Source: Candidatus Bathyarchaeota archaeon BA2
GTDB lineage: Archaea > Thermoproteota > Bathyarchaeia > Bathyarchaeales > Bathyarchaeaceae
DNA: 64,000 nucleotides
Assembly: GCA_001399795.1 (NCBI GenBank)
Contig: LIHK01000056.1
Coordinates: forward strand, 89,873 to 153,872
Direction: 5' to 3'
This document shows positions 20,530-59,187 of the stretch, piece by piece. The first letter of the stretch is position 1. Each line of letters opens with the position of its first letter. Both the position numbers and the translations under genes were made by a program. The notes beneath the pieces were generated by a model. It had not been told where the DNA came from. It saw only the letters and a program-made list of their open reading frames with translations, and ran no database searches.

Positions 20530-20530
20530 C

Positions 20531-22031: not shown

Positions 22032-22268
22032 ATGACAAATAAAAGAATAACACCTGAAAAATGTACTAATTGCTTAACCTGTCAGCTTATATGCTCTTAT
22101 TTGCATACGCGCAGTTTTAATCCCTCAAAATCAAAGATTAAAATAAAGCCTGGATATTTCAAAAATGGCGCTTGGATATCTAACCAAATAAGTTTTGAAA
22201 ATTGTGTGAAAGGATGTGGGCTCTGTATTAATTATTGCGTGTATGGCGCTATAATGGTGGATGAGTGA
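22032..22268 (+). CDS. Small 4Fe-4S ferredoxin-like protein coupled to AOR
   Basis: CTNCLTCQLIC and CVKGCGLCINYC motifs; 4-nt overlap with the downstream AOR gene. Confidence 0.6.
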   Translation: MTNKRITPEKCTNCLTCQLICSYLHTRSFNPSKSKIKIKPGYFKNGAWISNQISFENCVKGCGLCINYCVYGAIMVDE

Positions 22269-32693: not shown

Positions 32694-33542
32694 TTAAGAT
32701 AAAGGGAATGGGGGTCTCCTAAGGGCGATCTTTAGGATTCGATTATTTTTCGAGATTGCTTTTTCTTGAACCCTTAAAACCTCTTCTCCAAGCTTTGTAA
32801 GAGCATAGGCAGGAATGTTTTTTCCAAATGTGGATAATGCTTTAGGTCCGATAGTTTCTCGAACCACTTTGGAGGCGCAACCATAAACGATATCAGCTTT
32901 TTCAATAAAGGGGGCAAGCTCTTGCCCAATGCCGGTGGTATGCACCACTATTACTAGAACTGTAGCCTTATTTTCTTCTTCTAATAATCTTATTTTCGGT
33001 ATAGCTTGGGCATCTGGTCCCATCATTGTAACCCCAACTTTTCTATACCCCATTTTGAAAGACTTTTTAACACCAGCCACTTGATTTATTTCCGCAGTGT
33101 GGGGATTTAGAATAGTTGCTCCCTTTTTCTCAAGTTCACTTATAACTTCAGGGATCGGGGTGGTTTCAATTAATGCACTCATAAATACGCCGATTCCCTC
33201 CACAAGCGTCGGCTTTTCAGTGATAACAGTTCCCGCTCCGTCGCAAACCGTTACCGTTACGTCAATTATTTTTTGCTTCAAGGCCGTCATCAATGATTCA
33301 GATGCTCCAAAGCCAACAGCGGAGATGTCTGTCTCAAGAATCCTTTCGGGAGTGCAGAGGCCGAAAGCCCCTATTCTAAATTCTATAGACTTTTTTACCG
33401 TTTCCTTAGTTTGCTTTTCGGTTCCCCAAGCACTGTAATTAATGGGGCAAAATTTGGTTAACGGCTCACTCACCACTGAAACAACTCTACCCCCACTGAC
33501 TATAACCTTTGATTTACCAATCTCCCAAACATGCCTATCCAT
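32694..33542 (-). CDS. mmp8: Methanogenesis marker protein 8-like (DUF2099)
   Basis: 282 aa; size and position directly downstream of mcrC. N-terminal HVWEIGKSKVIVSGGRVVSV..PLTKFCP pattern recalled for this family. Confidence 0.5.
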   Translation of the reverse strand: MDRHVWEIGKSKVIVSGGRVVSVVSEPLTKFCPINYSAWGTEKQTKETVKKSIEFRIGAFGLCTPERILETDISAVGFGASESLMTALKQKIIDVTVTVCDGAGTVITEKPTLVEGIGVFMSALIETTPIPEVISELEKKGATILNPHTAEINQVAGVKKSFKMGYRKVGVTMMGPDAQAIPKIRLLEEENKATVLVIVVHTTGIGQELAPFIEKADIVYGCASKVVRETIGPKALSTFGKNIPAYALTKLGEEVLRVQEKAISKNNRILKIALRRPPFPLS

Positions 33543-33592
33543 GTTTCATCTACCCAAAAATTGAGGAAAAATCTCCTTTATTATGGTAATGT

Positions 33593-34222
33593 TTACGCAC
33601 GGCTTTCAGCCAATTTTCTAAACCAATATTTCACTTTCCTAACGATCTCATCAATTTTGCCTTGGGGACATGTTTGACCTCTAATTACTTCTGTTACAAT
33701 GTCTACAATTGTCCCTTTAGTTTCAGGCTTTTCAGGCTCCACTACTCTGGTTCTAACCCCAGCCTTAGCGAAATCTTCAAAATCCGCAGGAGCTTGACAA
33801 ATAACGATCGCTGGAATATTCACGTTCCTCAAAAAAACTTTAGTTTTGTGCACAAAGTGGCGTGGGACATTTCCGTGATGGATTATAGCTAATTTATGGC
33901 GGGCAATTTGATCCTCTTCCTCAGGGCTTATCCCAGAAACTCCGCCTGCTCCAGGCATGGGACCATACGGATATTCTTCTGGGGGCCCTATCCCCGCCTT
34001 TAAGACGAGAACACTTACTTGGAAGCCAGCTTCTCTTAATCCGTAGGTAATTTCGCAAACAGGTTTCGTTATATGACGTGTGCTGGGGCCCATTGAAAGT
34101 ACGATTATGTCTGGCTTTTCTGCCTCCGAGAAGGTTCCTCTCTGAGAAAGTCCCCCGCCAAGGCCAAGTCCAGCCGTTTCCCGGCAATCTATAACTTGGG
34201 TTTCTCTGCCAATCCTTGCCAT
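33593..34222 (-). CDS. mcrC: Methyl-coenzyme M reductase operon protein C
   Basis: MARIGRETQVIDCRETAGLGLGGGLSQRGTFSE matches the conserved McrC N-terminus; 209 aa. Confidence 0.85.
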   Translation of the reverse strand: MARIGRETQVIDCRETAGLGLGGGLSQRGTFSEAEKPDIIVLSMGPSTRHITKPVCEITYGLREAGFQVSVLVLKAGIGPPEEYPYGPMPGAGGVSGISPEEEDQIARHKLAIIHHGNVPRHFVHKTKVFLRNVNIPAIVICQAPADFEDFAKAGVRTRVVEPEKPETKGTIVDIVTEVIRGQTCPQGKIDEIVRKVKYWFRKLAESRA

Positions 34223-34248
34223 CTATCTTTCTCCATTAAATAAGCCGA

Positions 34249-34752
34249 TTATTCCTCGCCCCCCAAAAAATCCATCCGAATGACCGGAGGGCGCTTCCCT
34301 ACTCTATCTTCAGCCGTCTCTTTGCGTTTGCTGAATCTTCCAATTTTAGTGCTAAATCCGTAGGGGAAAGTTTCATTACAAACGTCCTTTATTTTGTCCA
34401 CTTCATCGATTTCGGCTGCTTCAATCCAAAATTTAGAAACTTGAATTTTAAGTGGAATAATTTTTCCGGCTACATCGATTTTTGTTTCATAGTAAACTCG
34501 AGGGCCCTGCATCGTTATTTGAGTGATTCCCATTAATTTCTGCATTTTCCGCAGAAATTTAGCTACAGTCTCTGCGCTCGGTAGGCGGTGGGGAAAAATC
34601 TCAATTTCAGGTTTAAAGGGAAGCCCCCTTGCATGTTCCTTGGCTTCCATGAAGCGTTTCTCTTCAAGAGCTTTTTCTAAAATTCTATAAACTTTCTCAA
34701 AAGTTCTCTGAGCGTTTTCCTTTGCATCAGGTTTCGACTTAATGGTGCTCAT
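34249..34752 (-). CDS. mcrD: Methyl-coenzyme M reductase operon protein D
   Basis: EIEIFPHRLPSAETVAKFL...GPR...IPLKIQV...FPYGF..KIGRF follows the McrD pattern. Start taken at the Met forming an ATGA overlap with the upstream gene. Confidence 0.75.
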   Translation of the reverse strand: MSTIKSKPDAKENAQRTFEKVYRILEKALEEKRFMEAKEHARGLPFKPEIEIFPHRLPSAETVAKFLRKMQKLMGITQITMQGPRVYYETKIDVAGKIIPLKIQVSKFWIEAAEIDEVDKIKDVCNETFPYGFSTKIGRFSKRKETAEDRVGKRPPVIRMDFLGGEE

Positions 34753-35714
34753 GCAGATATCCCACCTTTGTGGTTCCACTGAGAATTAATTAACTCCAAC
34801 TCTTTTAACCTTACGTATGATTTGGGATAAAGCTTTATTAAAATGTAGTTTTTCATCATAGACCTCCTTACCTCAGCAACATCCTCTAATATGTAATTGC
34901 CAACTCTAATTTTTTTAATAATTGAGGCAAACTTATCGTACCGCAATTTGACTCTCACTCCATCAAGTTGGGGGACGATGGGCGCTGGTGAATAGCAAGT
35001 TTTAACTTCTTCTATCTGTTTTTCGATTTCACTTTTAAGTATGAAAGGTGAAGTTATCAGGGGGTCTGCCGCTATCATTTCTCGTCGCCCATCTAGACAT
35101 TTTCCAACAGCTTTAGCTAATTCATCTAGCTTCCTTATTTCGCTTAGAAATCTGGTTCTATAGGGAATTCGGCCTATCCCACTGATGTATGCAGATGCGT
35201 AGGGGACATGGTCCAATTTAGGGCCGCCTGCCACGATAACTGGTATCCGTAAATCCTTATAGAGCTTCCACTTATGCTCTAGGAGGCAATAATCAAAATT
35301 TCCAAGAAGAAATACAGCGGCATCGTGTTCCTCTATCAGCGTTTTTTCTCTCCTTGTTATTTGCGCGACGCGTTGACCAACCCCCCTTGCGAGACCAATA
35401 ATGTTAGTCTTAGCTCCCATTCTCCGAAGATACTCTGCGATGTCGCATGCGGGGTGGGGAAGATGATGTCTGGTTATGGTGGGGGAAACTACGGCAATTT
35501 CAGATCCTACAAGTGGGATTTCTCTAAGTCTAGCTCTAAGTTCAAGAACTAGTTTTCTTAGCGTTGGGGTATCTTCCTCGGGAATGATGAATGTGATTGT
35601 TGCCTCTTGTGCAATGATTCTTACATTAAGGATAGAGCCTCCAAGATCTTCTACTAGTTCAAGGAGCTCTCGATGCCTATAGGCTTCCCCCTCAAATATG
35701 AATCCATTATACAT
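34749..35714 (-). CDS. mmp7: Methanogenesis marker protein 7-like
   Basis: 321 aa; size and position in the mmp cluster between the mmp17-like gene and mcrD. Confidence 0.55.
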   Translation of the reverse strand: MYNGFIFEGEAYRHRELLELVEDLGGSILNVRIIAQEATITFIIPEEDTPTLRKLVLELRARLREIPLVGSEIAVVSPTITRHHLPHPACDIAEYLRRMGAKTNIIGLARGVGQRVAQITRREKTLIEEHDAAVFLLGNFDYCLLEHKWKLYKDLRIPVIVAGGPKLDHVPYASAYISGIGRIPYRTRFLSEIRKLDELAKAVGKCLDGRREMIAADPLITSPFILKSEIEKQIEEVKTCYSPAPIVPQLDGVRVKLRYDKFASIIKKIRVGNYILEDVAEVRRSMMKNYILIKLYPKSYVRLKELELINSQWNHKGGISA

Positions 35715-36411
35715 CGTGCATCAAGTCATTGATTGGTTTCTTCCATGGTTTGTATATTTCTTCAGTTTTCTTAGGCTCTCTTTTAATTTCTTCAAACATT
35801 TCTGGCGGTATGGGCTTTGGTGGCTGAGCTAAGGTGGCTTTAACAATTTCAATCCATTCTTCCTGAATTGGATTTTCTGAGGTTATTATTGTTAGGCCGC
35901 TAGCCTCAGGTAAGAGGTGTTCTATCCTAAATGCTTCTGGAATAATTCTAGTTATTGCATCCAATATTTTTTCCATCATCTTTTCCCTCGGATCTGCAAC
36001 GATTACATTTTGAAGTTCATTTATGGTGGTTAGGTTGCGTGGAATGACGGTTTCCCATCTGTCAATTTGGGCGACATTATTTTTTCCAAAGGAGTTCCAA
36101 AGGACTTTTAACAGTTCAGGCGCGTATGTTTCGTCGTGGATTATAATGTGAATGCCATCCGTCCCCTCCTCTAGACGGGCGTAGTCTTTCATTCTGATTG
36201 GTTGACGTGGAAGACTAAGCTGGACTGAAACTGCAAAGAGGGGCTTCTTTATATCTATTAACACCCTCATCTGCTGGATTGCCTGTCCGATGACTAAATC
36301 ACTAAGTATGTACTCAGCAATAATTTTGTAAATTAAAATGCCAAAATCATGCTGGCACGTTTCATCAAGAGATTCTACAAAAATTTTCTCAGACAAATGA
36401 CAATCTCCCAA
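35707..36411 (-). CDS. mmp17: Methanogenesis marker protein 17-like
   Basis: 234 aa; assigned from its position between mmp15 and mmp7, not from a recognised motif. Confidence 0.45.
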   Translation of the reverse strand: MGDCHLSEKIFVESLDETCQHDFGILIYKIIAEYILSDLVIGQAIQQMRVLIDIKKPLFAVSVQLSLPRQPIRMKDYARLEEGTDGIHIIIHDETYAPELLKVLWNSFGKNNVAQIDRWETVIPRNLTTINELQNVIVADPREKMMEKILDAITRIIPEAFRIEHLLPEASGLTIITSENPIQEEWIEIVKATLAQPPKPIPPEMFEEIKREPKKTEEIYKPWKKPINDLMHDV

Positions 36412-36414
36412 ATG

Positions 36415-37635
36415 TTAAACGATTCCGGAGACTAGAAGGGCAGCTCCGACTGCCCCTCCATATTGAGGCATTTTTGGAACTAATATTTTAATTCCTAGAA
36501 TAGACTCCATTGCTTTAACGAGACCTGGAACAAGGGCTGTACCCCCAACTTCGATGATGGGTTGCCTTAAATCTATCTCCTGCAGTTGTGTCTCAAAAAC
36601 TTGTTGTGCTACACTATTGCAGGCAGCAGCAGCAACATCCTCTGCTAAACTTCCCCTAGCAAGAGCTGATACAAGATCTTGGATGCCAAAGATGGAGCAA
36701 AAGCTATCCATCCTAACTTTTTTATGGTTTCCCTTTAAAGCAAGCTCCCCTAACTTCGCAACATCTATGCCAAGCCTGGAAGCGGCTATTTCTAAAAATC
36801 TGCCAGAGGCTCCGGCGCATAGACCTCCCATGGTGAAGTTGTCTGGAATTCCATTGAGGAGGGTCATTACTTTGTTATCTAGTCCCCCTACGTCTATTAC
36901 GGTTGCCTCCCCCTTTTGCTTATTTGACATGAAGGCTGCACCTTTCGACGCAACAGTCAGTTCTTCTTGAATCAGGTCTGCGTTGAGTTTGCTTCCAATT
37001 AGATGCCTCCCATAACCCGTGACCCCCATTCTATGATTCCAATCGGCAGGAAGTCCAGCATTTTTCAAAGCTTCTTTCTTCACTTTTTCGGCTGACTTAA
37101 ATATGTCAGTTGTGGGGGCCCAACTTGCTCCAATTACCTCATTGTTTTCCATTACTACAGCTTTAGTCATGGATGAGCCTGAGTCAATACCCAAGGTTAG
37201 CCCCTCCTGTCTCTCGCGAGCTAAAAGAGACTTTCTCTCCACTATTGTAGCTAAAGCTTCCATTCTTGTTAGAAGTTCACCTAATTTCGGCTTTTCTGTG
37301 AAAGAATACATAACTAATGGTAACTCTGTTTTTTTCTGTAGATATTTTCTTAATGCATGTTTAGTGAGAGCTCCTTCACCACATCTAAAACATGTAACCA
37401 TGAAGATGGCGTCAGCCTCTGAAGGATCATCAATAATCGATTTTGCTCTTGCAATCATCAATTTTAGGTTTGGGCTTTCAACATCTAACCCAAATTCTTC
37501 AACTGATTTCTTGATGGATTCTAAATCAACTTCGGGGAAGACGAGTTTTGCCCCAATCATATCAGCCGCTTTTTCTAACTCTCCTTGAACGCCACTCCAC
37601 TCGGTTCCACAAGAAATTTGAGCAATCTTTATCAT
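36415..37635 (-). CDS. mmp15: Methanogenesis marker protein 15-like (BadF/BcrA/HgdC-type ATPase domain)
   Basis: 406 aa; [21 protein letters not shown] and [11 protein letters not shown] acetate/sugar-kinase-fold phosphate motifs in the C-terminal half. Confidence 0.7.
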
Positions 37636-37669
37636 GGGAAACAGTCCTTTAAACAGATCTTAATCAACA

Positions 37670-38110
37670 TTATGGTTTACTTAGATTCTTAAGGAAGTCA
37701 ACTATTTTCCTCACCATCACCTCAGCATTTTCCACGGTTGATGGATACTCAACTTTCAAAATTGGGATTTCCTTCTGTCCAAGTAGATATTTAACTAAAA
37801 TATTTGTCCGAGCGCACCCGGAGCAACCGAAGGCGAAGTCTGCGTTTTCTATGATAACGGCGGCTTCAGCTTGATCTATAAGCGGACCTAATATTCCCAT
37901 TCTACCTCTAATTCCGGATGGAGTTTCAACCGCCACATACCTTAACCCTCGAATAAGCTCTTCCTCGCTCACATTGAGAGGAGGACTATCAATTTCAGGT
38001 GTAGTAACTTTTTTCCTAATTTCCTCCATAATTACAATGGGTTCATGACCGAATCTTTCTACTAGATCTGCTAAAATTAAACTATTTGGAGGAAATACGA
38101 AGACCTTCAT
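37670..38110 (-). CDS. mmp5: Methanogenesis marker protein 5-like
   Basis: [24 protein letters not shown]...GCSGCARTN; about 146 aa; ATGA overlap with the upstream gene. Confidence 0.55.
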
Positions 38111-38553
38111 GATCTCCTTGCCCATCCATGTTTCTTAATTAGCTTTCTAATCATCTGAATAGGAACTATTTTCTCTTCTGGAGGCTTTGCAACTATGACT
38201 TTTTCTTTCGCTTCCAATGATTCAAGAGCAGCTCCTATTAAAGGGAGCAGTTGATGTTCAAATTCTATAAAGTGGAGGCCTGGTCTTGGGCCTCCACCCT
38301 TACTGGCTCGACATATTCGAATATCCCCGGGGGGATAGGCTCGAACTTTAGAAAAAATGTGATGTTTATCGACCTCCCCGATTTTTTGAAGCAACTCCTT
38401 TACCGCATTTTTCTTCCCTTCAACGATTAGGCCGAAACATGTTTCCTTCATTTTCAGCGTTAACTTTTGACTTATTAAATACTGGTAAAGGAGGGGTGGC
38501 GTGAGATCTGAATTTGGGGAAATTACAAATATACGCGCTTCTGTTTCCTTCAT
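38107..38553 (-). CDS. mmp6: Methanogenesis marker protein 6-like
   Basis: 148 aa; [12 protein letters not shown]...[19 protein letters not shown]; 4-nt overlap with the upstream gene. Confidence 0.55.
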
Positions 38554-40103
38554 TCACATTTTTCCTCCATAAAGTAAATGGTATCCCCTGCATTTTTGTT
38601 TTTTAATAAATCAAGGTCTCCAATTATTCTTCCAATTATATTTGTAGCTTCAAAAGGCTCCCCGGTTGGTCCATAGGTTTTGCTTGCTTTAAGTCTGATA
38701 CCTATTAATCCGCTGAGTTTTTTGCGGGAATTGGTAACCCCTATTGTCCCTTCTTCAACTGTATTCGATGGGGTTGTTTCAACAGATACGGATTTAATGG
38801 TCTTAATATTTCCGGGGCCTGAAAGTATCAGTGCCTCCCCAGTATTTTCAAATACATGAAGTTTACCGATTGGTGAATAAATCATGTCCGCTACCATTCT
38901 AAAGTGTAGGACGCTTCGAGGAGACTCCTCATCATGCATGTTTATATGATTGATAAATTTTGGGTTAACCCCTAGAGTGACTACAGACCCCTGGCCCTTC
39001 ACTTCCATGGTTAATTTGGGACGCTGTTCGATGATTATTGCCTGATCATTTTCATCCCCAACCCGAATATGCCTGATTCTCCGCTGAGATAAATAGTTGG
39101 CAGCTTGCCCCTGACTCATTCCCACCACCATAAGGCGTTCAGGGGTTGTTTTCACCAAGATTTTGTCACCTGGGTTTGCATGTTCCACTAACTCGACCCC
39201 ATGAACTACACTCCCCACAACGCTGTGGGATGAAGTAAAGGGGGCATCGTTTCGATAAATATAGATAGCTCCCACTTTGGTGCCTGTGTTTCTAACAGTG
39301 ATTGCCCCCTTAGGCCTGTAACCTGTATTTTCCTTTGGTAGGGGTATTCCAACGAATTTTTCATTGCAAATGAACATGCTACTTGCATGGCTCACCTTAA
39401 AAAAATCCCCAACGGTTGCTAAGAAATGTTCAGCACAGTTTGAGGTTCTCTCATCAAGGGTTGCTTTAACGTAGGTTAAAATTTGTATGTTGTCTTCTAC
39501 TGTTTTCTCCCCGATTTCTTCAGGTCTCAAAACCAATACTTTCCTACCCTCGATAGTTGATGGATATATGCGCAAAATCGAGTCGCCTCTTTCCAATTCC
39601 AAAATAACGTGGCCCCCACTAATTACTCTCCCAATTATTCCCCAATTCTCCTTCGGGGCCCCATAGACTCCTTCATGGTCCACCCAACTGAAGCATATGT
39701 AGGAAAAAGCTGGATCGAATCCTCCAAAGCTTAGAAAAACATCCCAACAATGATATTTAATCTTCTCCTTGGTTGCCTTAAGCCCTGAATGCGAGAGGTC
39801 TATTGAGCCAAATGTAACTGCCTTTTTGGTAATCCACCCAAATTCAACTCCCTGAAAATCTTGGTAATGCTTTAACCAGAAAGGGAGAAGGGAATCTTCT
39901 ACTCTAATAGAGAATTTCCCTTTGGGGGTTTCTATGAAAAAGTCTCTAGGCAGGTGAGGTTCTGAAATCGATTCTCCTCCTCTTTTTATAGCAATTATTT
40001 TGCAATCCTTTGCGTAAGGTGCTTTAATAATGTTTATAGCATCGAGAATGGTTGATTTTTCATAAACCTCTAGTTTTTCCCCGTTAACCTCTATTTTGAT
40101 CAT
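38550..40103 (-). CDS. mmp3: Methanogenesis marker protein 3-like
   Basis: About 517 aa from the Met at 40103 (MIKIEVNGEKLEV); first gene of the cluster; size matches the family. Confidence 0.55.
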   Translation of the reverse strand: MIKIEVNGEKLEVYEKSTILDAINIIKAPYAKDCKIIAIKRGGESISEPHLPRDFFIETPKGKFSIRVEDSLLPFWLKHYQDFQGVEFGWITKKAVTFGSIDLSHSGLKATKEKIKYHCWDVFLSFGGFDPAFSYICFSWVDHEGVYGAPKENWGIIGRVISGGHVILELERGDSILRIYPSTIEGRKVLVLRPEEIGEKTVEDNIQILTYVKATLDERTSNCAEHFLATVGDFFKVSHASSMFICNEKFVGIPLPKENTGYRPKGAITVRNTGTKVGAIYIYRNDAPFTSSHSVVGSVVHGVELVEHANPGDKILVKTTPERLMVVGMSQGQAANYLSQRRIRHIRVGDENDQAIIIEQRPKLTMEVKGQGSVVTLGVNPKFINHINMHDEESPRSVLHFRMVADMIYSPIGKLHVFENTGEALILSGPGNIKTIKSVSVETTPSNTVEEGTIGVTNSRKKLSGLIGIRLKASKTYGPTGEPFEATNIIGRIIGDLDLLKNKNAGDTIYFMEEKCE

Positions 40104-40353
40104 GCGTGTTCTAAGATAGAAAATGGATGAATAATAGAAAAAGGTTGTGGGCACTGACACAATCTAGCTGAATTGAACATTTCCATGCTTTAACGGGGAA
40201 GTCGATGCTGGCGAGGTACTGTGAGGCTGGTGTTAGAAGCAGGGTTGTTATGTGTAGCTTAGTGATAGTTGATACAGACTGTAACTAATACAAACCTTTT
40301 TATTTTTAGACTCTGATTTACATACTCACGAAATAAGGTTTATAACAGTTAAA

Positions 40354-41799
40354 GTGATGAAGATGCCCGAAAAAATCATTCTGAGATTGTTGGAAGATGC
40401 TGTTGGAAAGGAAAACGTATCTGATGATGAAAGCATTTTGATTGCTTACTCCAGGGATCAATATTGGAACTTTGTTCCACCTAAAATGCCTGATTATGTT
40501 GTGAGACCAAAAAATACCGAAGAAGTTCAGGCTGTAATGCGTATCGCAAACAGATATCGCATCCCTGTTATCCCGATGAGTAGTGGAGTAAACGTCCGAG
40601 GACTCTGCATTCCGGAGCAGGGTGGAATCGTCCTTGAATTGAAAAGGATGAATAGAATTATTGAAATAAACAAGGATGCTATGACTGCCACGGTTGAGCC
40701 AGGCGTTACAATGGTCGAATTCGTAGCAAGTGCTAGGAAACTCGGCCTCAGGCCTGCAGTCCCGGGCGCCCCTGCTGTGGTCTCGCCAGTATCAAATTAC
40801 ATGCTAAGAGGGGTTTATCATCATATTTCTTCCATTGGAATCGATCATGTTCTTTCGATGGAAATAGTTCTGCCGAATGGCGAACTTTTATACACTGGTT
40901 CAGCAGCCTTCCCAAATATTGGTCCGTATTCAAGATTTGGATTTGGTCCAGATCTCACAGGTCTTTTCATGGGTCAGCCAGGAACGATGGGTGTTGTAAC
41001 AAAATTGACTTGCCGTATGTATCCGCTTCCTGAGGCTGAGGAGTGGCTTGGAGCCGGGTTCAATGATCTGAGTAAAGCTGTAAAATTTGTGGATGAATTA
41101 ATGACTGAAAAGCTGTTGGCAAGCTGCTGGTTGCTACACTGGTCTGTTCCCTTAATTACGATGGCGCCTTCACGCGATCTTCAAAAACTTAGGGAGGATG
41201 TGCTTGGGGGATGCGAATGGTTTATAAACCTAACATTCGAGTCGAGCAAAGGCCTCATAGACTATAAGAGAAAAGCCGTTGAAAAGATTGTTCAAAAGTA
41301 TAAACCCGACCTTATCGGAGGGCCGCTCCCCATGGAAGTGGGACCAATAAAGAATGAATGGATGTATCCGAGAAGGATATTTAATTGGTTTAAGTTCGGA
41401 AATTACTTCGCACTAGCCTTCTGGGGACCACTAACTAAATTTGAAGAATATCACGATTTAGGCCTTAAGTTCTGGAAAAAACATGGGCTTGACCCCGAGA
41501 AATTTTCAATTATAGCCGCGCCAACCGAGCCTTATTGCGGTAAACTTAGTTACATAGAAATGGAATGTTTTTACGACTCAACAAACCGAGCTGAGGCTGA
41601 ATCACTGACCGCATTTACATCAGATATGACGAATGAACTTATAGAACTTGGGATATATGGATGGTTTAGGCCTTACGCATTGGCAGTGAAAGCTTCACTT
41701 GGTAAACTTAAGGGAAATTATGTAGAGCTTTGGAAGAAGATTCACGACATTATTGATCCAAATAATACAATGAATCCTGGCAAGCTTTGGCCAGTTTAG
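40354..41799 (+). CDS. FAD-binding oxidase, GlcD/VAO family (copy 2)
   Basis: PDYVVRPKNTEEVQAVMRIANRYRIPVIPMSSGVN, TATVEPGVT, DPNNTMNPGK; paralog of 31271-32680. Confidence 0.8.
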   Translation: MMKMPEKIILRLLEDAVGKENVSDDESILIAYSRDQYWNFVPPKMPDYVVRPKNTEEVQAVMRIANRYRIPVIPMSSGVNVRGLCIPEQGGIVLELKRMNRIIEINKDAMTATVEPGVTMVEFVASARKLGLRPAVPGAPAVVSPVSNYMLRGVYHHISSIGIDHVLSMEIVLPNGELLYTGSAAFPNIGPYSRFGFGPDLTGLFMGQPGTMGVVTKLTCRMYPLPEAEEWLGAGFNDLSKAVKFVDELMTEKLLASCWLLHWSVPLITMAPSRDLQKLREDVLGGCEWFINLTFESSKGLIDYKRKAVEKIVQKYKPDLIGGPLPMEVGPIKNEWMYPRRIFNWFKFGNYFALAFWGPLTKFEEYHDLGLKFWKKHGLDPEKFSIIAAPTEPYCGKLSYIEMECFYDSTNRAEAESLTAFTSDMTNELIELGIYGWFRPYALAVKASLGKLKGNYVELWKKIHDIIDPNNTMNPGKLWPV

Positions 41800-43007
41800 G
41801 AGGTGTCGTGAGCATGCAAGGTTTAAGGGATTTAGAGAAATGGCGTAAATTCTCGTATTTATGTGCCCATTGCCGTTGTTGCTCCGCGGCGGATTATCAT
41901 ACGTTAGGAGAATATATGCAGATATGCCCTTCCGGAACATACTTTGGATTTGAAAGCTACTTTTCATCTGGCAAAATGGAAGTCATTCGTGGTTTGATAG
42001 AGGGACTGATTTCGAAACCATCAGAAAAACTACTCGAAATAGTTTATGTCTGTACCTTATGTGGTGCTTGCGAAAAAAACTGCGAGGAATTCACTCTGTT
42101 AGGAGAAGACTCTGGAGGCTTGACGCACATCTTTGAGGATGCTAGAGCCTTCCTCGTAGAAAGTGGGTGGGGGCCACTTGAGAAACATAAAGAGTTTGCC
42201 AGTAGCATCAGAGTTAATCACAATCCATACTTAGAACCGCATGAAAAAAGAGAAAGCTGGACAGAAAAAAGTTCGTTAAGAAAAGGGTCTCTGGTTTATT
42301 TCACAGGCTGTACTTCGTCTTATAGACAGAAGGAAGTGGCGAAGGCTACTGTTAAAGCATTGGAAGCAATGGAAGAAAAATTTGTGATAATGGGTAGCGA
42401 AGAATGGTGTTGTGGTTCTCCGCTTTTGAGGACAGGACAGATAGATCAGATAACTGAACTGGCTGAACATAATGTAAAAGCCTTAAAAGAAATAGGGGCT
42501 AAAAAAGTAATAACTTCTTGTGCAGGTTGCTATAGAACTTTAAAAAGCGAATACCCAAAAATATTAGGCGCACAACCAGACTTTGAAGTGGTGCATTCTT
42601 CTCAATTTTTTGCGGGGGCGCTTGACAAAAATAAATTGAAGCTCACTAAAGATGTTGATGCTACGGTTACCTACCATGATCCATGTCACCTGGGCAGGCA
42701 TATGGGCGTGTACGACGAACCGAGAAATCTTCTTAAAAAGATTCCAGACCTAAAACTGGTGGAAATGCCTAGGAGCCGACAAAATAGTTGGTGTTGTGGT
42801 GCGGGAGGCGGCGTCAAATCTGCGTTTCCAGATTTTGCGACATCAACAGCCGTTGAGAGATTGAGGGAGGCTGAGGCAATTGGAGTTAAAAAAATAGTGT
42901 CGATGTGTCCCTTTTGCAAACATAACCTCACAGACGCAGCCAAACTACTTAAGAACAAATTCGAAGTCTACGATGTTGTAGAGCTACTTTCAAAGGCAAT
43001 AGGCTAA
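41787..43007 (+). CDS. HdrD/GlcF-like Fe-S protein with two CCG domains (copy 2)
   Basis: CAHCRCCS, CTLCGACEKNC, EWCCGSPLLRTG, SWCCGAGGG, CPFCKHN; roughly half the residues are identical to copy 1 by eye. Confidence 0.75.
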   Translation: MASLGGVVSMQGLRDLEKWRKFSYLCAHCRCCSAADYHTLGEYMQICPSGTYFGFESYFSSGKMEVIRGLIEGLISKPSEKLLEIVYVCTLCGACEKNCEEFTLLGEDSGGLTHIFEDARAFLVESGWGPLEKHKEFASSIRVNHNPYLEPHEKRESWTEKSSLRKGSLVYFTGCTSSYRQKEVAKATVKALEAMEEKFVIMGSEEWCCGSPLLRTGQIDQITELAEHNVKALKEIGAKKVITSCAGCYRTLKSEYPKILGAQPDFEVVHSSQFFAGALDKNKLKLTKDVDATVTYHDPCHLGRHMGVYDEPRNLLKKIPDLKLVEMPRSRQNSWCCGAGGGVKSAFPDFATSTAVERLREAEAIGVKKIVSMCPFCKHNLTDAAKLLKNKFEVYDVVELLSKAIG

Positions 43008-43087: not shown

Positions 43088-43546
43088 ATGCCTTTAATTG
43101 GAACTAAAAAATGGTTTGAGGCTACTACAAAAGCTTGGAATTCTGACCCTGACAACGTAAAAAGCATGGCAGAAGTACAGGAATCAATTCTCTTGGTTGT
43201 AGATGATCCACCCATAAAGGGGTTAAGAGAGAAAGTAGAAAGCGATGTAATAGACCCTGAAATTTTGAAACGGATGGAAGCTGAGAATAGAGCGGAGTTA
43301 ATTCTCAACATTGAGGATGGCCAAATCAAGGAGTTTAGATTTGCTAGACCCGATGATAGACCTACGGTTATCTTGAGTGGGAAATACGAAGAATTCGAAA
43401 AGGTTGGGAAGGGGGAGGCTGAAACCGTCTGGCAAATTTTAGATGCAAAAGTCAAGTTTAAAGGCGTATTACCTAGATTCGCTACATATATAGATGAGTA
43501 TACTAAACTCTGGCAAATTATAATAGCGAATACAGAGGTTCCTTAG
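43088..43546 (+). CDS. SCP2 (sterol/lipid carrier)-like domain protein
   Basis: GTKKWFEATTKAWNSDPD..., PTVILSGKYEEFEKVGKGEAETVWQILDAKVKFKG follows the SCP2 C-terminal pattern (G-x-l-d-p..A...GK+k.kG). Confidence 0.55.
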   Translation: MPLIGTKKWFEATTKAWNSDPDNVKSMAEVQESILLVVDDPPIKGLREKVESDVIDPEILKRMEAENRAELILNIEDGQIKEFRFARPDDRPTVILSGKYEEFEKVGKGEAETVWQILDAKVKFKGVLPRFATYIDEYTKLWQIIIANTEVP

Positions 43547-43559
43547 GAGATTAAGCAAA

Positions 43560-45032
43560 ATGGAAGAAATCGGTTTAGAGGAAAAATTTGAAATAGAAAA
43601 AGTAAAATGGGAGAAGACTTTGGAGGAAATGGGCCTTGACAAAATCTGGAAGAAGATGGTAGCAATAACCCCATTCCCTGGCAAAACCCCGATGTTTGCT
43701 GAAGTATGGTTTGTCATGCCTTTTACGCGGAATTTTTTCAGAGAAGTTGGCATAAATCCCGAACTCTGGCAAAGGCTGAAGTATGAAAATTTTGTCGAAT
43801 GGTCGTACCGCGTGGATCGAGCCGTTGAAACATCCGACCGCTGCATGAAAGAAAAGATCCCTAAGGAAGAGATCTACTGGACCAAAAACCTATGCTACTT
43901 GAGCCATCCACCCGCATATCTATGTAGACCTGATGTCGGGAAATCCTCTTGCGTAGCGCTTTACGGAAAATACGCGACATGTGAATACGTGCATGTAGAC
44001 GATTTTACTAGGGAGGTCTACTGGGTCAACGGCTACCATAACGAAGACGGGATACCCGTTCATAGGTGGACTGTTGGAGCGGATGAAAACATAAGCAAAT
44101 ATTTCGATGCGGAGGATGATGTAGCGTTCACGCAAAGCACGGCTGAGCATACCGCACCAGCCAGCAGGAAGGAACTGGACGAAAGGCTAGATAGGAGACA
44201 CCTCCGAACCGGGATAAAGATTAGGGATGCTCCTAAAAAACACTGGGATCCATATGATTGGGGGATGGCTGTGCGCGATGTGATCACTGACCTTAGAATT
44301 GAAAGCTTTCCCAAGTGGGTCCATGCGACACTATACATGTCTTGTGTTTCAATGATCTCTAGCACGATAGCCCAAAGCGTGCTAACTAGCTCCGAATTTT
44401 TCATTTACGTGTATTACGGGCTTAACACCACAGCTCTGGGTATCAACTACAATTTATTTTCATACGTGCCCCTCCCGCCCATGATCAGAGTCCTCATCGG
44501 TCTACCTCAAGAAACATTTGTCAAGCGCATGAGTCAACTCTTTCTAGGCGGTTATGATGCATTCCACAGGTACACATGTAAAGAGAAGAAAATCCCAAAT
44601 CTCTTCAAACTGAAGAGATACACGTTTGAACACGGGCAGTTCTTCCCACACTACAAGGGAATACCCCCACCCATGGTTATAGCTCGTGCTATCCCACCCT
44701 CTCTCCAAAAGATCAATTTGAAACAATTCTTGGAGACGCCTCCAAGCAAGGAGTTTTGGGAAATCCTGGAGAGTGAAGCAAGGGCGAATCGTGAGACAGG
44801 TGAAATCCCACCGGCGGATGAGACCGGTAGGATGTATTTCCTATTAGACCCATCGATAGAGCCACTTAAAGCCAAAGACTTCCCCCCGATGGACTTCAAT
44901 GAGGGACAGATTTGGCCATTCGACATCACCCGGGAGAAGGTTGAAATTATGGTCGAAGAAGGGTACGATGGATCTGGAAGGAATATAGAGTATTATAGCG
45001 AACTTGCAAACAAAAAAATGGGCAAAAAATAG
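43560..45032 (+). CDS. Orphan 490-aa protein of unknown function (Cys-rich segment plus central hydrophobic region)
   Basis: Long uninterrupted ORF 14 nt after the SCP2-like stop. It has 5 Cys within CMKEKI..CYLSHPPAYLCRPDVGKSSCVALYGKYATCEYVH. No family recognised. Confidence 0.6.
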   Translation: MEEIGLEEKFEIEKVKWEKTLEEMGLDKIWKKMVAITPFPGKTPMFAEVWFVMPFTRNFFREVGINPELWQRLKYENFVEWSYRVDRAVETSDRCMKEKIPKEEIYWTKNLCYLSHPPAYLCRPDVGKSSCVALYGKYATCEYVHVDDFTREVYWVNGYHNEDGIPVHRWTVGADENISKYFDAEDDVAFTQSTAEHTAPASRKELDERLDRRHLRTGIKIRDAPKKHWDPYDWGMAVRDVITDLRIESFPKWVHATLYMSCVSMISSTIAQSVLTSSEFFIYVYYGLNTTALGINYNLFSYVPLPPMIRVLIGLPQETFVKRMSQLFLGGYDAFHRYTCKEKKIPNLFKLKRYTFEHGQFFPHYKGIPPPMVIARAIPPSLQKINLKQFLETPPSKEFWEILESEARANRETGEIPPADETGRMYFLLDPSIEPLKAKDFPPMDFNEGQIWPFDITREKVEIMVEEGYDGSGRNIEYYSELANKKMGKK

Positions 45033-45091: not shown

Positions 45092-45583
45092 CTACGGGGC
45101 TCCAAGAGACCATGCGGAGGGCCTTCCACTTCTCGGTCGTCCAGCAGCCACATCGAAAATGTCTTTTAAATCCATCGCTGCAGCTATGTTCCCTTTTATA
45201 TCACCTCTGCCACTAAAGAATGCTGACATTATATCTATTTCCCCGATCATAGACCTGGCGAGGTCGTAATACTTGAGCGTGAGTACTAAATCGGGCTCCT
45301 CACCCTCTGGTTCCCCTGGCTTCATCGAGACAGGGGCAAACATTAGGGTGAGAGGTTCGATTCCACGTTTCGGGTGCTCCGCCCTAATTACTATTAACCT
45401 AGGTGGAATTTGGGCTGCAATATCTAGCGCCTCTGGAGTTATCATAACTTTCCCGATAGTAAATCCATACATTAATTCTTCAAACATGGGTTCTTTTTCA
45501 TGTGCTTTCAGCCATTCTACTTTTTTCCACCATCCATCGGGTAACTCTTTATATTCAGCTTCTTCCGACGACAAACAAATCAC
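45092..45583 (-). CDS. SCP2-like domain protein
   Basis: DLVLTLKYYDLARSMIGEIDIMSAFFSGRGDIKGNIAAAMDLKDIF is a classical SCP2 C-terminal motif; divergent from mcrA. Confidence 0.65.
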   Translation of the reverse strand: MICLSSEEAEYKELPDGWWKKVEWLKAHEKEPMFEELMYGFTIGKVMITPEALDIAAQIPPRLIVIRAEHPKRGIEPLTLMFAPVSMKPGEPEGEEPDLVLTLKYYDLARSMIGEIDIMSAFFSGRGDIKGNIAAAMDLKDIFDVAAGRPRSGRPSAWSLGAP

Positions 45584-45676: not shown

Positions 45677-47500
45677 TTGGAGGAGAAAGAAGAAAGAAAA
45701 AAGTTTTATGACGATAAAGGTCAAATAACGGCTAGAGAGCGCGATTACGTAAGGGAACTCTACGCTGTATCCAAAAAGTTCCTTCCAACCGAAAGAAGAA
45801 GAGCAATCTACTCTAGATTAGAGAAGCAATTTGGCGCAGACCCCCTCAGCCTTGTGGATTCAGAAATGTATAAACGGGGTGGGTACAGGCAATCAAAACG
45901 TAAACAAGAATTCGTTAAGTCGGGTCGACAAATTGCCATAGAAAGAGGCATACCAGCCTATAATCGAGCTGTTGGAATTCCTCTAGGTCAAAGAATTCTT
46001 GAACCTTACGTAATCACTGGGACTGATATTACAGTAGAACAGGATGATACTCATCATGTTAACAATCCAGCCATCCAACAGATGGTGGACGACATCAAGA
46101 GAACCACAATAGTCAACATCGACATCGCCCACAGAATGCTTCAAGTAAGGGCTGGAAAAGAAGTAACTCCGGAAACAATCAACCTCTACTTAGAAACCCT
46201 TAATCATACTATGTGCGGTGGCGCCGTAGCCCAAGAACACATGTCCGAGATTAATCCCTTGCTGGTGAAAGACGCGTATGCTAAGGTGATTACTGGAAGC
46301 GACGAAATTAAAGACGCTCTAGACAGAAGGTACGTCATTGATATTGACAGACTTTTTCACCCAACCAGGGCGGAGCAACTGAAGAAAGCCCTTGGCAACA
46401 GCATCTGGGTGGTTCTTAGAACCCCGACAATAGCGATAAGGATGGCTGATGGTGACGAGGCTCATAGGTGGGCTGCTATGCAGAACACGATGGCTTTTAT
46501 CGGATCCTACGGCCTTTCGGGAGAACACGTAGTTTCCGACCTAGCCTACTCCTTCAAGCACGCCAGAGTTGTAAACATGGGTAACAAAATGTGGTACCAA
46601 AGAATGCGCGGAAGGAATGAGCCCGGCGGCTTCCCAGACGGCTACATATGCGACTTCATCCAATCCGAGCGAGACCTACCGGCAAGACCTTTCTTGGAAG
46701 TTTCAGAGGAGGATCCGGAAGAGGCTAAGAAATATTCCCGTGCTATGTACGAAGGTATCGGCGCAATCGCAGCAGTTCTTGACAATATGATATGGCTGGG
46801 ATTCTACATGAGTGGCGGTATAGGATTCTCAAACACGGTATCCGCTGCAGGTCTCGCAGGAGGCGTAATAGAAGATATCACAGAAGAGCTTATTGAAACG
46901 ACCCACAGATATATCCGAGGTATAAAGAAGGTACCACCAAAATGGGATATTGTCAGATTCATAGTCGATATGATCATACAGTACGTGATGGAATCTTATG
47001 AAAAGTTCCCAGCATTGTCCGAATTCCATTGGGGAGGAGCCCATAAGGTTTCAATCATAGGTAGTATGGGTGCTGGTGTGGCTTCACTTCTCACAGGTAG
47101 TTCAACAATGGGCATGTGGGCTGGCCACTATGCTATAGCGCTGGTTATGAAAGAGGGGTGGTTGAGAACTGGATGGGCTGGACAAGAAATCCAGGATCAC
47201 ATAGGTTTGCCGAGCCTATGTAGCTTTAGGCCTGAAGAAGGCAATTTCGCGGAATTAAGAGGTCTTAACTACCCGATGCAATCATTCAGCGCAGCCCATG
47301 GTTCTCTAAGGGATGCAGCTATATATGGAGCAATGATAGGAAGAGGTTCAGCATGGAGTGCCAGTCCAGTGGTTAAGGTAGCTTTCGCTGATCCGCATCT
47401 GGTCTTTGACTTCAAGAATCCAAGATTATGCATTGCGAAAGCGTGTATAAAGCAATTCATGCCAGCCGGAGAAAGGGGCCCGTCGCTCCCAGCGCATTAG
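45677..47500 (+). CDS. mcrA: Divergent methyl/alkyl-coenzyme M reductase alpha subunit (ACR-like McrA)
   Basis: 607 aa; GGYRQSKRKQEF, ERGIPAYN, GKEVTPETINLYLE, MRGRNEPGG, YMSGGIGFSNTVSAAG, ELRGLNYP, FMPAGERG align with McrA landmarks. TTG is the only start candidate after the in-frame stop at 45635. Confidence 0.9.
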   Translation: MEEKEERKKFYDDKGQITARERDYVRELYAVSKKFLPTERRRAIYSRLEKQFGADPLSLVDSEMYKRGGYRQSKRKQEFVKSGRQIAIERGIPAYNRAVGIPLGQRILEPYVITGTDITVEQDDTHHVNNPAIQQMVDDIKRTTIVNIDIAHRMLQVRAGKEVTPETINLYLETLNHTMCGGAVAQEHMSEINPLLVKDAYAKVITGSDEIKDALDRRYVIDIDRLFHPTRAEQLKKALGNSIWVVLRTPTIAIRMADGDEAHRWAAMQNTMAFIGSYGLSGEHVVSDLAYSFKHARVVNMGNKMWYQRMRGRNEPGGFPDGYICDFIQSERDLPARPFLEVSEEDPEEAKKYSRAMYEGIGAIAAVLDNMIWLGFYMSGGIGFSNTVSAAGLAGGVIEDITEELIETTHRYIRGIKKVPPKWDIVRFIVDMIIQYVMESYEKFPALSEFHWGGAHKVSIIGSMGAGVASLLTGSSTMGMWAGHYAIALVMKEGWLRTGWAGQEIQDHIGLPSLCSFRPEEGNFAELRGLNYPMQSFSAAHGSLRDAAIYGAMIGRGSAWSASPVVKVAFADPHLVFDFKNPRLCIAKACIKQFMPAGERGPSLPAH

Positions 47501-48013: not shown

Positions 48014-48583
48014 TTAGGCTTTAAACCGTTTAGTCAAGCTCGTCATTACCGGAACTAATTTTATTCCTGTCGCCAAATCTCCTTCCAGTTTGAACTGACC
48101 TGCTATGTATCCCTTAACTGGATCAACATCACCTATCAACAGTCCTATCAAAGTCTTCGCATCTGACGAAACCTTGAGATCAGGGGCATCCAAAAGGGCT
48201 GAGCCACCAGAAATTTTTCCACCACTCAGTTTAAAATGACCCTTTAAGGGGCTGTCGGTGGCTTCAAAGTTAACCTTTATTTCCCCTGCATTTACCACTT
48301 TTTTCTTAACTTCCTCGTCTTTCTCAACGAGTATGCCTACACCTTCCCACAAAACGTCCGTGAATGCTGCTGATGCTTCAGGTGCCTCGGTCACGAATTT
48401 TCTAACGTCGATCGATCTTAAGTTATTTACTAACCTCAATGCTAAATCCGGCATTGCCTCCATCAGGTTTCCAACGCCAAATGCTTTTACTCTCTCCACT
48501 AAAGGAGGGAGAGCAGTTTTCAGCTCATTTTCTGACATCTTGAGCGCTTTGTCTACGTCTTTCTTCAATTCTTCCGCACTCAT
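48014..48583 (-). CDS. SCP2-like domain protein (189 aa)
   Basis: DLKVSSDAKTLIGLLIGDVDPVKGYIAGQFKLEGDLATGIKLVPVM is an SCP2 C-terminal motif. Confidence 0.7.
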   Translation of the reverse strand: MSAEELKKDVDKALKMSENELKTALPPLVERVKAFGVGNLMEAMPDLALRLVNNLRSIDVRKFVTEAPEASAAFTDVLWEGVGILVEKDEEVKKKVVNAGEIKVNFEATDSPLKGHFKLSGGKISGGSALLDAPDLKVSSDAKTLIGLLIGDVDPVKGYIAGQFKLEGDLATGIKLVPVMTSLTKRFKA

Positions 48584-55549: not shown

Positions 55550-56941
55550 TTGTCAAACCTGTCTTTAAAATATAAAGATACATTAGACCTATACGATGAT
55601 CATTCCAATTGTATTGCAAAAGAAGTGCCGCTGCAAGCTCTCTCACCGTTATATAACCCCTATATGAGGGAGGTTTTAAATCTTTTCAAAAGAACAGCTT
55701 TTATTGACCTAGCCAAGCTGGAGCAATATGTAAAGTCTGGAAGAGCAGGCTGGGAAACAGTCGTTGGGCAAGATGAGATTCAAATGCCTTGGTACGGTAG
55801 GGACCTGCCTATGGTTGAGCGTTCAGAGGAAATAGCTGAGAGAATAAAAGAGAAAATCGCAAAATTCGATGACGGAGAGGAGGAGCTTGTGAAGCCTGTA
55901 GCAGGTGGCAAGCTAATCATTGTTAAGATACCGAGAAGAATGATGGAAGTTTCAGCCAGCCGCGACCCACCGCTCACATGGACGATGGTGGCTTTATGTC
56001 AAGCTATATCTGAAACTTTCAATTTGAATCCTGAAACTGACCCGGATGGCTGCAACATGGTGAGAGGAGCCATCTTTGGAAGGTACCCTCAATCCCCTGA
56101 GTTGCCTCCTGGTGGACCTGTTTTCGGACTTTTGAGGCAAAGCAACATCGTGGACGGTTTGGGGAGCGGGTTTAGAGGAATAATGGTGAATCACATTGTG
56201 GCCCTAGTTAATAAAAGAACTATGGACGGTGTTGCTTTAGCCACAATTTTGGAACAAGGTGCACAGTGGGAGATGGGTAACGTGTTGGGATGGTTTGAAA
56301 GATATAATCTCCTTGCGTCAGCCTACCAAGGCTTCAACGCAAACAATCTTGTTCTAGACCTCGTTCTGGAGAACAGGGAGGGAACTATAGGAGACGTTGC
56401 ACGTAGCACGGTGAAAAGGGCTGTAGAGGACGGGGTCATAAAAGTCAAAAAAACTTTTCCATCGGGGTACAAGGTCTATAGTACGAGTGACTATCCTCTT
56501 TGGAACGCATATGGTTGCGCTGGAGTGCTAGCTGCGGTAATAGTTAACGTTGGAGCGAGTAGAGCTGCACAAAGTGTTTCAACCGTTACAGGTTATTTTG
56601 GCGACCACTTGATTTTTGAGACTGGGGGGTTACCTGACCCTGACACTGGCAGAATTGAAGGCACAGGCATAGGCTATGCGTTCTACACCCATTCCATATA
56701 TGGCGGAGCGGGTCCTGGTGCGTATACTTTAGACCATGTTGTCGTAAGGAGTACCTCAGGTTTCTTAACTCCATGTGTCGTTGCAGGTATGTGTCTCGAT
56801 TCTGGAACTCAACTTTTCTCTCCTGAAATGACCTCCAGTGCTTTGTTCAAGATAAGAGATCACATGCCGTTACTCAACGAGCCGTTGAAAAAAGTGGCTG
56901 AGGCAGCTGAAAAGGTTAAAGGAGAATTAACAAAGGCATAG
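55550..56941 (+). CDS. mcrB: Methyl/alkyl-coenzyme M reductase beta subunit
   Basis: YKDTLDLYDD at the N-terminus; HSIYGGAGPGAYTLDHVVVRSTSGFLTPCVVAGMCLDSGTQLFSPE parallels the canonical HSIYGGGGPG...CVAAA..DAGTQMFSPE; TTG start. Confidence 0.9.
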   Translation: MSNLSLKYKDTLDLYDDHSNCIAKEVPLQALSPLYNPYMREVLNLFKRTAFIDLAKLEQYVKSGRAGWETVVGQDEIQMPWYGRDLPMVERSEEIAERIKEKIAKFDDGEEELVKPVAGGKLIIVKIPRRMMEVSASRDPPLTWTMVALCQAISETFNLNPETDPDGCNMVRGAIFGRYPQSPELPPGGPVFGLLRQSNIVDGLGSGFRGIMVNHIVALVNKRTMDGVALATILEQGAQWEMGNVLGWFERYNLLASAYQGFNANNLVLDLVLENREGTIGDVARSTVKRAVEDGVIKVKKTFPSGYKVYSTSDYPLWNAYGCAGVLAAVIVNVGASRAAQSVSTVTGYFGDHLIFETGGLPDPDTGRIEGTGIGYAFYTHSIYGGAGPGAYTLDHVVVRSTSGFLTPCVVAGMCLDSGTQLFSPEMTSSALFKIRDHMPLLNEPLKKVAEAAEKVKGELTKA

Positions 56942-56942
56942 T

Positions 56943-57761
56943 TTGAAGGTGATGCACGTGGCAAGTGAAAAGAGAGAGGAAAAAAGTGAATTCGAGCCTC
57001 AAATCTACCCTGGACAGGATGAGGTGTCAGAAAGAAGGAGAAAGCTTTGGGATAAGCGTCGACGCCTAACAAAGTATCGAGACGTACCAGACGATGACAT
57101 AACCCGCCTTCTGGGTCATAGGCCGGTTGGAGCACTATATGTAAGTGTCCATCCACCTCTTGATGAACTTATAGAACCATACGACCCGATAAAAAGTCTA
57201 GTTGCTCCGACACCAGGGGCGAGAGCAGGGGATAGGATAAGATTTGCTCAGTTTTCAGATAGTTTTTGGCATCCTCCAATAACTCCCTATGCTAGGCAAA
57301 GACTCTATTTTAATAGACTCAGAGGTGTCGATGTTGTCACCTATAGCGGCAGAACAATGTTAGAGATGAGGGAGCGGGATTTAGAAACAGCTGTAAAGCC
57401 TCTAATCGAAACCGAAGTATTCAACCCAGCTAGAACAAGTTTGAAAGGAATAACTATTCACGGACACTCTTTAAGGCTTGATGAAGATGGCCTAATGTTC
57501 GACGCTAGGCGAAGATTCGTTTACGATAAAGAGACAGGCGAGGTAGTTTACATTAAGGATCAATTCGGCAAAGTTTTAGACAGGCCAGTGCCAGTCGGGC
57601 GCCCCCCCTCAGAAGAGGAATGTAGAAAACTGAGTATAACCTACAGTTGGGATACCCGACAATTTAAATCCAGAACCGAAGTAATAGAGCTAATCTCAAG
57701 AGTTGCAAATATGAGGGTATTGGCAGGATTCAATCCCGAATCAATCAACGAGGAGATTTAA
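56943..57761 (+). CDS. mcrG: Methyl/alkyl-coenzyme M reductase gamma subunit
   Basis: PQIYPGQDEVSERRRK, FAQFSDSFWHPP, MLEMRERDLE, GHSLRLDEDGLMFD align with McrG. The true start may be ATG 56952 or GTG 56958. Confidence 0.9.
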   Translation: MKVMHVASEKREEKSEFEPQIYPGQDEVSERRRKLWDKRRRLTKYRDVPDDDITRLLGHRPVGALYVSVHPPLDELIEPYDPIKSLVAPTPGARAGDRIRFAQFSDSFWHPPITPYARQRLYFNRLRGVDVVTYSGRTMLEMRERDLETAVKPLIETEVFNPARTSLKGITIHGHSLRLDEDGLMFDARRRFVYDKETGEVVYIKDQFGKVLDRPVPVGRPPSEEECRKLSITYSWDTRQFKSRTEVIELISRVANMRVLAGFNPESINEEI

Positions 57762-58365: not shown

Positions 58366-59187
58366 ATGGAGCTGAAACTTCTTCGAGTAGACCTTTCGAC
58401 AGAAATCATCAAAGAAGAGAAAGTAGACGAAGCAACAACCAAGAAGTTTGTGGGAGGCCGTGGAGTCGGAGTAAAGATCCTTTTCGATGAACTTAAACCA
58501 GGAACAGACCCATTAGGTCCAGAAAACAAGCTGATCTTCATGACGGGTCCGGCTACAGGAACAGCATTTCCAGCGAGTGGAAGATTCCACGTAATTACCA
58601 AATCCCCCCTCACAGGCAGGATCGGGGATACAAACTGCGGTGGCAACTGGGGTCCAGAACTGAGATTCGCTGGCTTTGAGGGTATCATTTTTGAAGGAAA
58701 GGCGAAGGAACCTGTTTACCTTTGGGTTCACGAAGGCGAAGCCGAACTGCGAAGCGCTAGAAAATATTGGGGTAAGGGGGTCTGGGACACTGAAGATGGG
58801 ATTTGTGAAGAACTCGGGGAACCCAAGGCAAAGATAGCGAGCATAGGGCCAGCAGGCGAGAACCTAGTTTTATCCGCAGCCATTATGAACGACAAACACA
58901 GAGCGGCTGGCAGAACGGCTGCAGGAGCTGTAATGGGTTCCAAAAACTTGAAAGCTATAGCAGTCCATGGAACAGCCAAACCCCCCGTGGCTGACCCAGA
59001 AGGATTACGAGAGACTGTAAAGAGAATTCTAGAAAAACTTAAAGAGAACATGGTCACTGGCGAATCGCTTCCAACCTATGGGACCTCTGCCCTAATTAAT
59101 GTTATCAATGCATTTGGCATCTTTCCGACTCGTAACTTCCAAACTGGAGTATTCCCTACGGCTGAGAAGATAAGTGGTGAAACAATA
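58366..59187 (+). pseudogene. AOR-family gene, N-terminal fragment (codons 1-274), interrupted by an insertion
   Basis: LLRVDLS..., GGRGVGVKILFDE, GPATGT, AGAVMGSKNLKAIAVHGT, ...FPTAEKISGETI, then out-of-family sequence and a stop. Confidence 0.8.

Follow-up and report, generated by a model that had tools for sequence, protein, structure and literature searches.

Archaea that oxidise long-chain alkanes form alkyl-coenzyme M (alkyl-CoM) by means of Acr, as demonstrated for Ca. Cerberiarchaeum and Ca. Methanoliparum. For the subsequent conversion of alkyl-CoM to acyl-CoA, AOR (in Ca. Ethanoperedens) and MtaAC (in Ca. Syntrophoarchaeum) have been proposed. Long acyl and alkyl chains are bound by SCP2 domains, which adopt an alpha/beta fold of approximately 110-130 aa, with a five-stranded sheet and helices that form a hydrophobic tunnel; examples are Archaeoglobus fulgidus AF1534 (PDB 3bn8), the Aedes SCP-2 with bound palmitate (2ksi) and the C-terminal domains of the YjcS alkyl sulfatase and of Eis. 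The step from alkyl-CoM to acyl-CoA is an acknowledged gap in the archaea with a long-chain Acr, and Ca. Cerberiarchaeum does not possess mtaAC, the candidate proposed for butane oxidisers (PMC10811742). To judge by its name and origin, the MAG S4B3_HD70, obtained from the hexadecane70 culture of that archaeon, probably represents Ca. Cerberiarchaeum.

The locus under study is located in a stretch of 64,000 nucleotides of Candidatus Bathyarchaeota archaeon BA2, which was analysed as a whole and is referred to here as the window. It contains a large alkyl/methyl-CoM reductase cluster with the following features:

22265-24211, plus strand: tungsten aldehyde:ferredoxin oxidoreductase (AFOR)
32694-40160: mcrC, mcrD, a McrC-like protein, DUF2099/2102/2112/2113 methanogenesis-associated proteins, a BcrAD/AtwA-like ATPase and Mmp3
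40354-43007: GlcD/HdrD-like pair, one of two such pairs in the window
43088-43546, plus strand: SCP2-fold gene of 152 aa, translationally coupled to the following ORF
43560-45032, plus strand: the ORF under study, intact, with an ATG start and 490 aa
45092-45583, minus strand: SCP2 (PF02036) protein, between the ORF under study and acrA and divergent from acrA
45677-47500, plus strand: AcrA (mcrA), 607 aa, of the long-chain Acr type and with an N-terminal extension
48014-48583, minus strand: second SCP2-like protein, SCP2 plus Alkyl_sulf_C
55550-56941 and 56943-57761, plus strand: AcrB and AcrG, respectively, approximately 8 kb from acrA
59349-61232, plus strand: second AFOR (AFOR_N plus AFOR_C), downstream of acrBG

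The McrA encoded in the window is 76-78% identical to AcrA of Hadarchaeota and 63% identical to the Acr of Ca. Methanoliparum, as opposed to 42% to the canonical McrA of Methanoliparum, indicating that it is of the long-chain-alkane Acr type; its best matches in the PDB are canonical MCRs, relative to which it carries an N-terminal extension of approximately 45 aa. The distance of about 8 kb between acrA and acrB/acrG represents an unusual arrangement, and the intervening region encodes McmA (a glutamine C-methyltransferase), two ABC transporters, a 4Fe-4S protein and the second SCP2-like protein. Just upstream of the full-length AFOR at 59349-61232 lies a 283-aa ORF (58366-59217, plus strand) that contains AFOR_N and no more than the beginning of AFOR_C; it could represent an AFOR copy that has been truncated or split. 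Additionally, corrinoid/siderophore ABC transport genes (a Peripla_BP_2 binding protein, a FecCD permease and an ABC ATPase) are located at 17815-21316 and possibly serve cobalamin uptake. The host genome comprises 1.46 Mb in 57 contigs, with 'hydrocarbon metagenome' as its recorded origin, and the nearest relatives of its RpoB (83-94% identical) are those of Bathyarchaeia/Bathyarchaeota, including BA1, which identifies the genome as a member of the Bathyarchaeia. A region identical to that analysed here is present in GCA_002509245.1.

An earlier note on this DNA had pointed to a long, clean ORF of 490 codons linked to an SCP2-like gene, and both the ORF and the linkage are borne out by the present analysis. 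The upstream 152-aa gene ends with a TAG stop codon at 43544-43546, leaving a gap of 13 nt to the ATG at 43560, and a Shine-Dalgarno sequence (AGGAG, 43545-43549) overlaps this stop codon at a distance of 10 nt from the ATG; the overlap and the short gap together indicate that the two genes are translationally coupled. The 152-aa protein has no match in Pfam or NCBIfam. Its model in the ESM Atlas aligns with an archaeal SCP2 cluster at a TM score of 0.82 and its language-model matches are SCP2 families, and the label 'SCP2-like' is thus correct despite the failure of Pfam to detect it. For the 490-aa protein, in which no family had been recognised, Pfam (even at E<10) and NCBIfam were likewise empty, and a sequence-profile search of the PDB returned no solved homolog. 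Its position had also been described accurately, as it lies between the GlcD/HdrD-like pair on one side and the divergent SCP2 gene and mcrA on the other.

A protein homolog search identified 24 homologs, which belong without exception to Hadarchaeota/Hadarchaeales and Ca. Methanoliparum. Furthermore, a scan of GTDB-species genomes with two C-terminal peptide patterns, from which the host's own record was excluded, detected the close family only in Hadesarchaea/Hadarchaeota MAGs and in Methanoliparia (Methanoliparum and Methanolliviera), and mcrA/acrA was present in each of the five carrier genomes that were checked. The Hadarchaeota MAGs each encode four to seven paralogs of the family, of which only some are found in acr operons. 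Helarchaeales are also described as carrying a long-chain Acr; they yielded no match to the two C-terminal patterns, a scan that divergent members, such as those of Helarchaeales, would escape. Within the Bathyarchaeia, the 490-aa protein was absent from all 401 genomes sampled across the phylum, and both it and McrA were absent from 24 sampled relatives of the same family. Three other genomes in the sample of 401 bear an McrA, which is of the canonical type (64% identical to the canonical McrA of Methanoliparum), and none of the three possesses the family, from which it follows that the family accompanies the long-chain Acr rather than MCR at large. The close family therefore appears restricted to archaea with a long-chain Acr, across three phyla, which is the phyletic pattern that the earlier note had suggested looking for; the close family is not common among archaea devoid of mcr/acr genes, a distribution that would have told against the note. 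Since the host is the only McrA bearer in its family sample and the other McrAs in the class sample are canonical, horizontal acquisition of its long-chain Acr cluster is likely, and the absence of the 490-aa protein from the 401 genomes, and of both proteins from the 24 relatives, suggests that the cluster and this protein were transferred together.

The neighbourhoods of the homologs, as defined by blastp of the ORFs at each locus against those of the window, connect the family with Acr and with the proposed downstream steps. At five Hadarchaeota loci a paralog with 44% identity constitutes the fifth gene of acrA-scp2-acrB-acrG operons, the second gene of which is a homolog of the SCP2 protein at 45092-45583; one of these operons, that of WYZ-LMO6, reads acrA-scp2-acrB-acrG-X-acrA-scp2 and thus contains a second acrA copy. 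In Hadarchaeales JZ-2 (locus L010) the ortholog (67% identity) lies in the order acrA, scp2, ADP-forming acyl-CoA ligase, homolog of the 152-aa SCP2 protein, ortholog, SCP2 and AFOR, and at locus L011 the order is ortholog, SCP2, AFOR and ABC. A small SCP2 gene precedes the orthologs at L010, L011, L012 and L017, and the coupling is retained at L010, L011 and L017. At four loci of Ca. Methanoliparum the homolog is the first gene of a cluster with ferredoxin, AFOR, an AMP-forming acyl-CoA synthetase (FadD), CMD and DUF483. Homologs of the window's AFOR at 22265-24211 adjoin members of the family in Methanoliparum and Hadarchaeota, as do homologs of the SCP2-like protein at 48014-48583 in Hadarchaeota and Methanolliviera. 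With their AOR and acyl-CoA synthetase genes, these neighbourhoods correspond to the route that has been proposed to lead, downstream of Acr, from alkyl-CoM via fatty acid to acyl-CoA. Several Hadarchaeota paralogs are located away from acr genes, and in one genome the ortholog is not near acrA. A second conserved neighbourhood was observed at six Hadarchaeales loci, where an ortholog group with 60-62% identity adjoins a homolog of the AIRS/PurM-like gene at 16664-17614 in the window (316 aa) and is itself followed by a GPN-loop/MeaB-like P-loop GTPase.

With respect to genomic context, the 490-aa protein resembles the accessory proteins of MCR/ACR systems, i.e. McrC, McrD, AtwA (component A2), the Mmp proteins and McmA, in that it is encoded in or next to MCR/ACR clusters and its close family displays both the linkage to acr genes and the restriction to MCR/ACR archaea by which such proteins are recognised. 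An Acr-specific assembly or maturation factor, comparable to McrC/McrD or the Mmp proteins, might fold or activate the long-chain AcrA, for example by handling its N-terminal extension of about 45 aa. This reading accommodates the operon membership of the paralog, the association with the long-chain Acr and not with canonical MCR, and the coupling of a distant relative to a 607-aa McrA in Syntropharchaeia (see below). We nevertheless regard it as improbable, since the four to seven paralogs per genome exceed one per acrA and many are away from acr genes, the Methanoliparum homolog adjoins AOR and acyl-CoA synthetases and not acr genes, and the fold, to the weak extent that it resembles anything, recalls lipid carriers and not known chaperones. 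Moreover, the known assembly factors McrC and McrD are already encoded in the window, where they and Mmp3 are separate genes, and the 490-aa protein shares neither sequence nor fold with McrC (PF04609), McrD (PF02505) or the methanogenesis markers. It also differs from MCR/ACR accessory proteins in accompanying the long-chain Acr but not canonical MCR and in the presence of several paralogs per genome.

The AlphaFold2 model of the 490-aa protein, built with the 24 homologs, is confident, with a pLDDT of 89.7 and a pTM of 0.90. From the N-terminus onwards it consists of a helical region, a core of mixed alpha/beta structure and a C-terminal region that is conserved; these parts may be delineated as follows:

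residues ~1-100: N-terminal helices
residues ~100-340: core, predicted to be weakly SCP2-like
residues 449-488: family-specific, conserved C-terminal tail

The structure searches that had been recommended gave a divided result. Foldseek against the PDB revealed nothing significant for either the full-length or the core-domain model; a structure search of the ESM Atlas with the model gave no TM score above 0.31, and a search of the Atlas with the protein itself gave no feature-based match, the Atlas's own model of it being poor. Conversely, when VIA-align was run against all 48k PDB clusters, the eight top matches of the full model were SCP2 sterol-carrier structures (Z 4.0-5.0, approximately 105-117 residues within 69-339). 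The core domain (residues 60-400), folded separately with distant superfamily members (pLDDT 87.6), again had SCP2 folds as its top matches (Z 4.2-5.2), followed by the SCP2-like domains of YjcS, UbiJ, Eis and GNATs. Over the two models, the top matches align across 104-118 residues with an rmsd of 3.3-4.1; a Z of about 5 is a weak match, below the best Z of 7-8 that is typical of unrelated models. SCP2 is thus the consistent top family, and these weak matches suggest that the core is an elaborated, SCP2-like fold that would bind lipid. A complex of the 490-aa protein with its 152-aa SCP2 partner was also predicted, although weakly (0.56 versus 0.00 for the best control), with a pLDDT of at least 86 for the partner and agreement of the runs in at least 81% of contacts, an outcome that tells neither for nor against such a complex.

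The operons in which the protein is encoded also contain true SCP2 proteins, from which it differs in several respects. It comprises approximately 490 aa as opposed to about 120, the aligned residues are spread over some 250 residues with insertions, and it possesses a family-specific N-terminal helical region and a conserved C-terminal tail. There is no sequence similarity, not even a PF02036 profile match at E<10, and its conserved polar motifs GYHNEDG and DRRH are not typical of SCP2. These motifs extend beyond the close family, as a profile HMM search identified a wider superfamily of proteins of about 385 aa (E 1e-16 to 1e-30) that is not represented in Pfam and has only the core in common. 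Conserved across this superfamily are H160/E162/D163 (in GYHNEDG, residues 158-164), R212/R213/H214 (in LDRRHL, residues 210-215), a DxRxE motif at residues 244-248, and P304/P306. The superfamily was rejected as part of the same family, as its members share the core without the N- and C-terminal regions and are mostly found outside Acr contexts. Some are encoded in genomes or contexts without MCR and one has a signal-like N-terminus; homologs beyond Acr archaea are therefore found at the level of this core, which indicates that the core, and with it the chemistry, is not specific to Acr. At two loci of Ca. Syntropharchaeia, a 375-aa member follows an ORF of 117 aa and precedes a 607-aa McrA in a translationally coupled array; this layout mirrors that of the small ORF and the 490-aa ORF in the window, and a second McrA (558 aa) is encoded in the same locus.

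The features that had been read from the protein itself fared less evenly. All five cysteines that were noted are present, at residues 95, 112, 122, 131 and 141, but C112 alone is conserved (17 of 24 family members), and the cluster was therefore rejected as a metal-binding motif of the family. The central hydrophobic stretch (residues 256-288) corresponds to a buried strand and helix in the model; with a maximum 19-residue Kyte-Doolittle mean of 1.2 it contains no segment of transmembrane strength, which excluded it as a membrane anchor, and it is not a conserved feature of the family. The C-terminal half is indeed enriched in proline, but only modestly so (8.5%, compared with 5.3% for the N-terminal half); a number of PP motifs (P304, P306) are invariant.

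An SCP2-like core would also suit a carrier for alkane uptake or delivery, i.e. a shuttle that feeds substrate to Acr and does not handle its alkyl-CoM product. The fold suggested by the models, the several SCP2 proteins that flank the acr genes and the occurrence only with the long-chain Acr are all consistent with such a function; nonetheless, it seems quite unlikely, since the conserved Arg/His cluster would favour a ligand with a polar head, for instance the sulfonate of CoM, over a bare alkane, and since the AOR and acyl-CoA synthetase neighbourhoods point downstream of Acr.

A further structural likeness concerns LytR-CpsA-Psr (LCP) phosphotransferases (e.g. 3tep, 6uex), Gram-positive cell wall enzymes that bind a polyprenyl lipid via conserved Arg/Asp residues and whose fold has a conserved Arg cluster for lipid pyrophosphate and Mg2+. 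Residues ~130-315 of the core show weak structural similarity to these enzymes, at very low scores (Foldseek probability at most 0.14, VIA Z at most 3.7), and the 490-aa protein has a conserved Arg/His cluster (R212-R213-H214); there is no Pfam LytR_cpsA_psr match and no sequence similarity, and the taxonomic distribution differs. A lipid-handling or cell-envelope protein that takes no direct part in alkane metabolism, and that passed between lineages on a genomic island which also bears the Acr cluster, would agree with this likeness, with the broader superfamily outside Acr contexts, some members of which have signal-like N-termini, and with the paralogs away from acr genes, but it has little probability in view of the strict co-occurrence with the long-chain Acr over three phyla, the operon membership in Hadarchaeota and the downstream-pathway enzymes in the neighbourhoods.

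The reading that we prefer, and put forward tentatively as possible and somewhat short of probable, is that the 490-aa protein represents a previously undescribed family of the long-chain Acr pathway, with an SCP2-like core that serves to bind alkyl-CoM by its alkyl chain. In such a scheme, the core would accommodate the hydrophobic chain, the R212-R213-H214 cluster may hold the sulfonate of coenzyme M, and the H160/E162/D163 motif would be available for chemistry. Together with the coupled small SCP2 protein, the protein would take alkyl-CoM from Acr and would either pass it on for conversion to the fatty aldehyde or acid or perform this conversion itself, after which AOR and acyl-CoA synthetases would yield acyl-CoA for beta-oxidation. 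The presence of AOR and acyl-CoA synthetases in its neighbourhoods is consistent with a place in the same pathway as the AOR of Ca. Ethanoperedens and the MtaAC of Ca. Syntrophoarchaeum, although the protein is unrelated to AOR or corrinoid methyltransferases in sequence and fold. A more specific version, in which the protein, perhaps with its SCP2 partner, is the enzyme that splits the thioether of long-chain alkyl-CoM, is conceivable but unlikely; it would set CoM free, would supply AOR and acyl-CoA synthetase with a fatty aldehyde or alcohol, and would entail a new active site of His-Glu-Asp and Arg-Arg-His residues within an SCP2-like hydrophobic tunnel.

The earlier interpretation of this ORF, as a candidate for an uncharacterised step of the pathway, is thus partly supported: the Acr-restricted close family, the operon paralog and the AOR and acyl-CoA synthetase neighbours speak for it, while the core superfamily extends beyond Acr. 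The restricted range, the operons and AOR neighbours and the putative lipid-carrier-like core combine to make the protein a concrete candidate, amenable to testing, either for the missing step itself or for the carrier of its substrate. If this is true, the protein would close a gap that is central to the anaerobic oxidation of alkanes and to the methanogenic degradation of oil, and the family would provide a marker gene that distinguishes long-chain alkane degraders from canonical methanogens.
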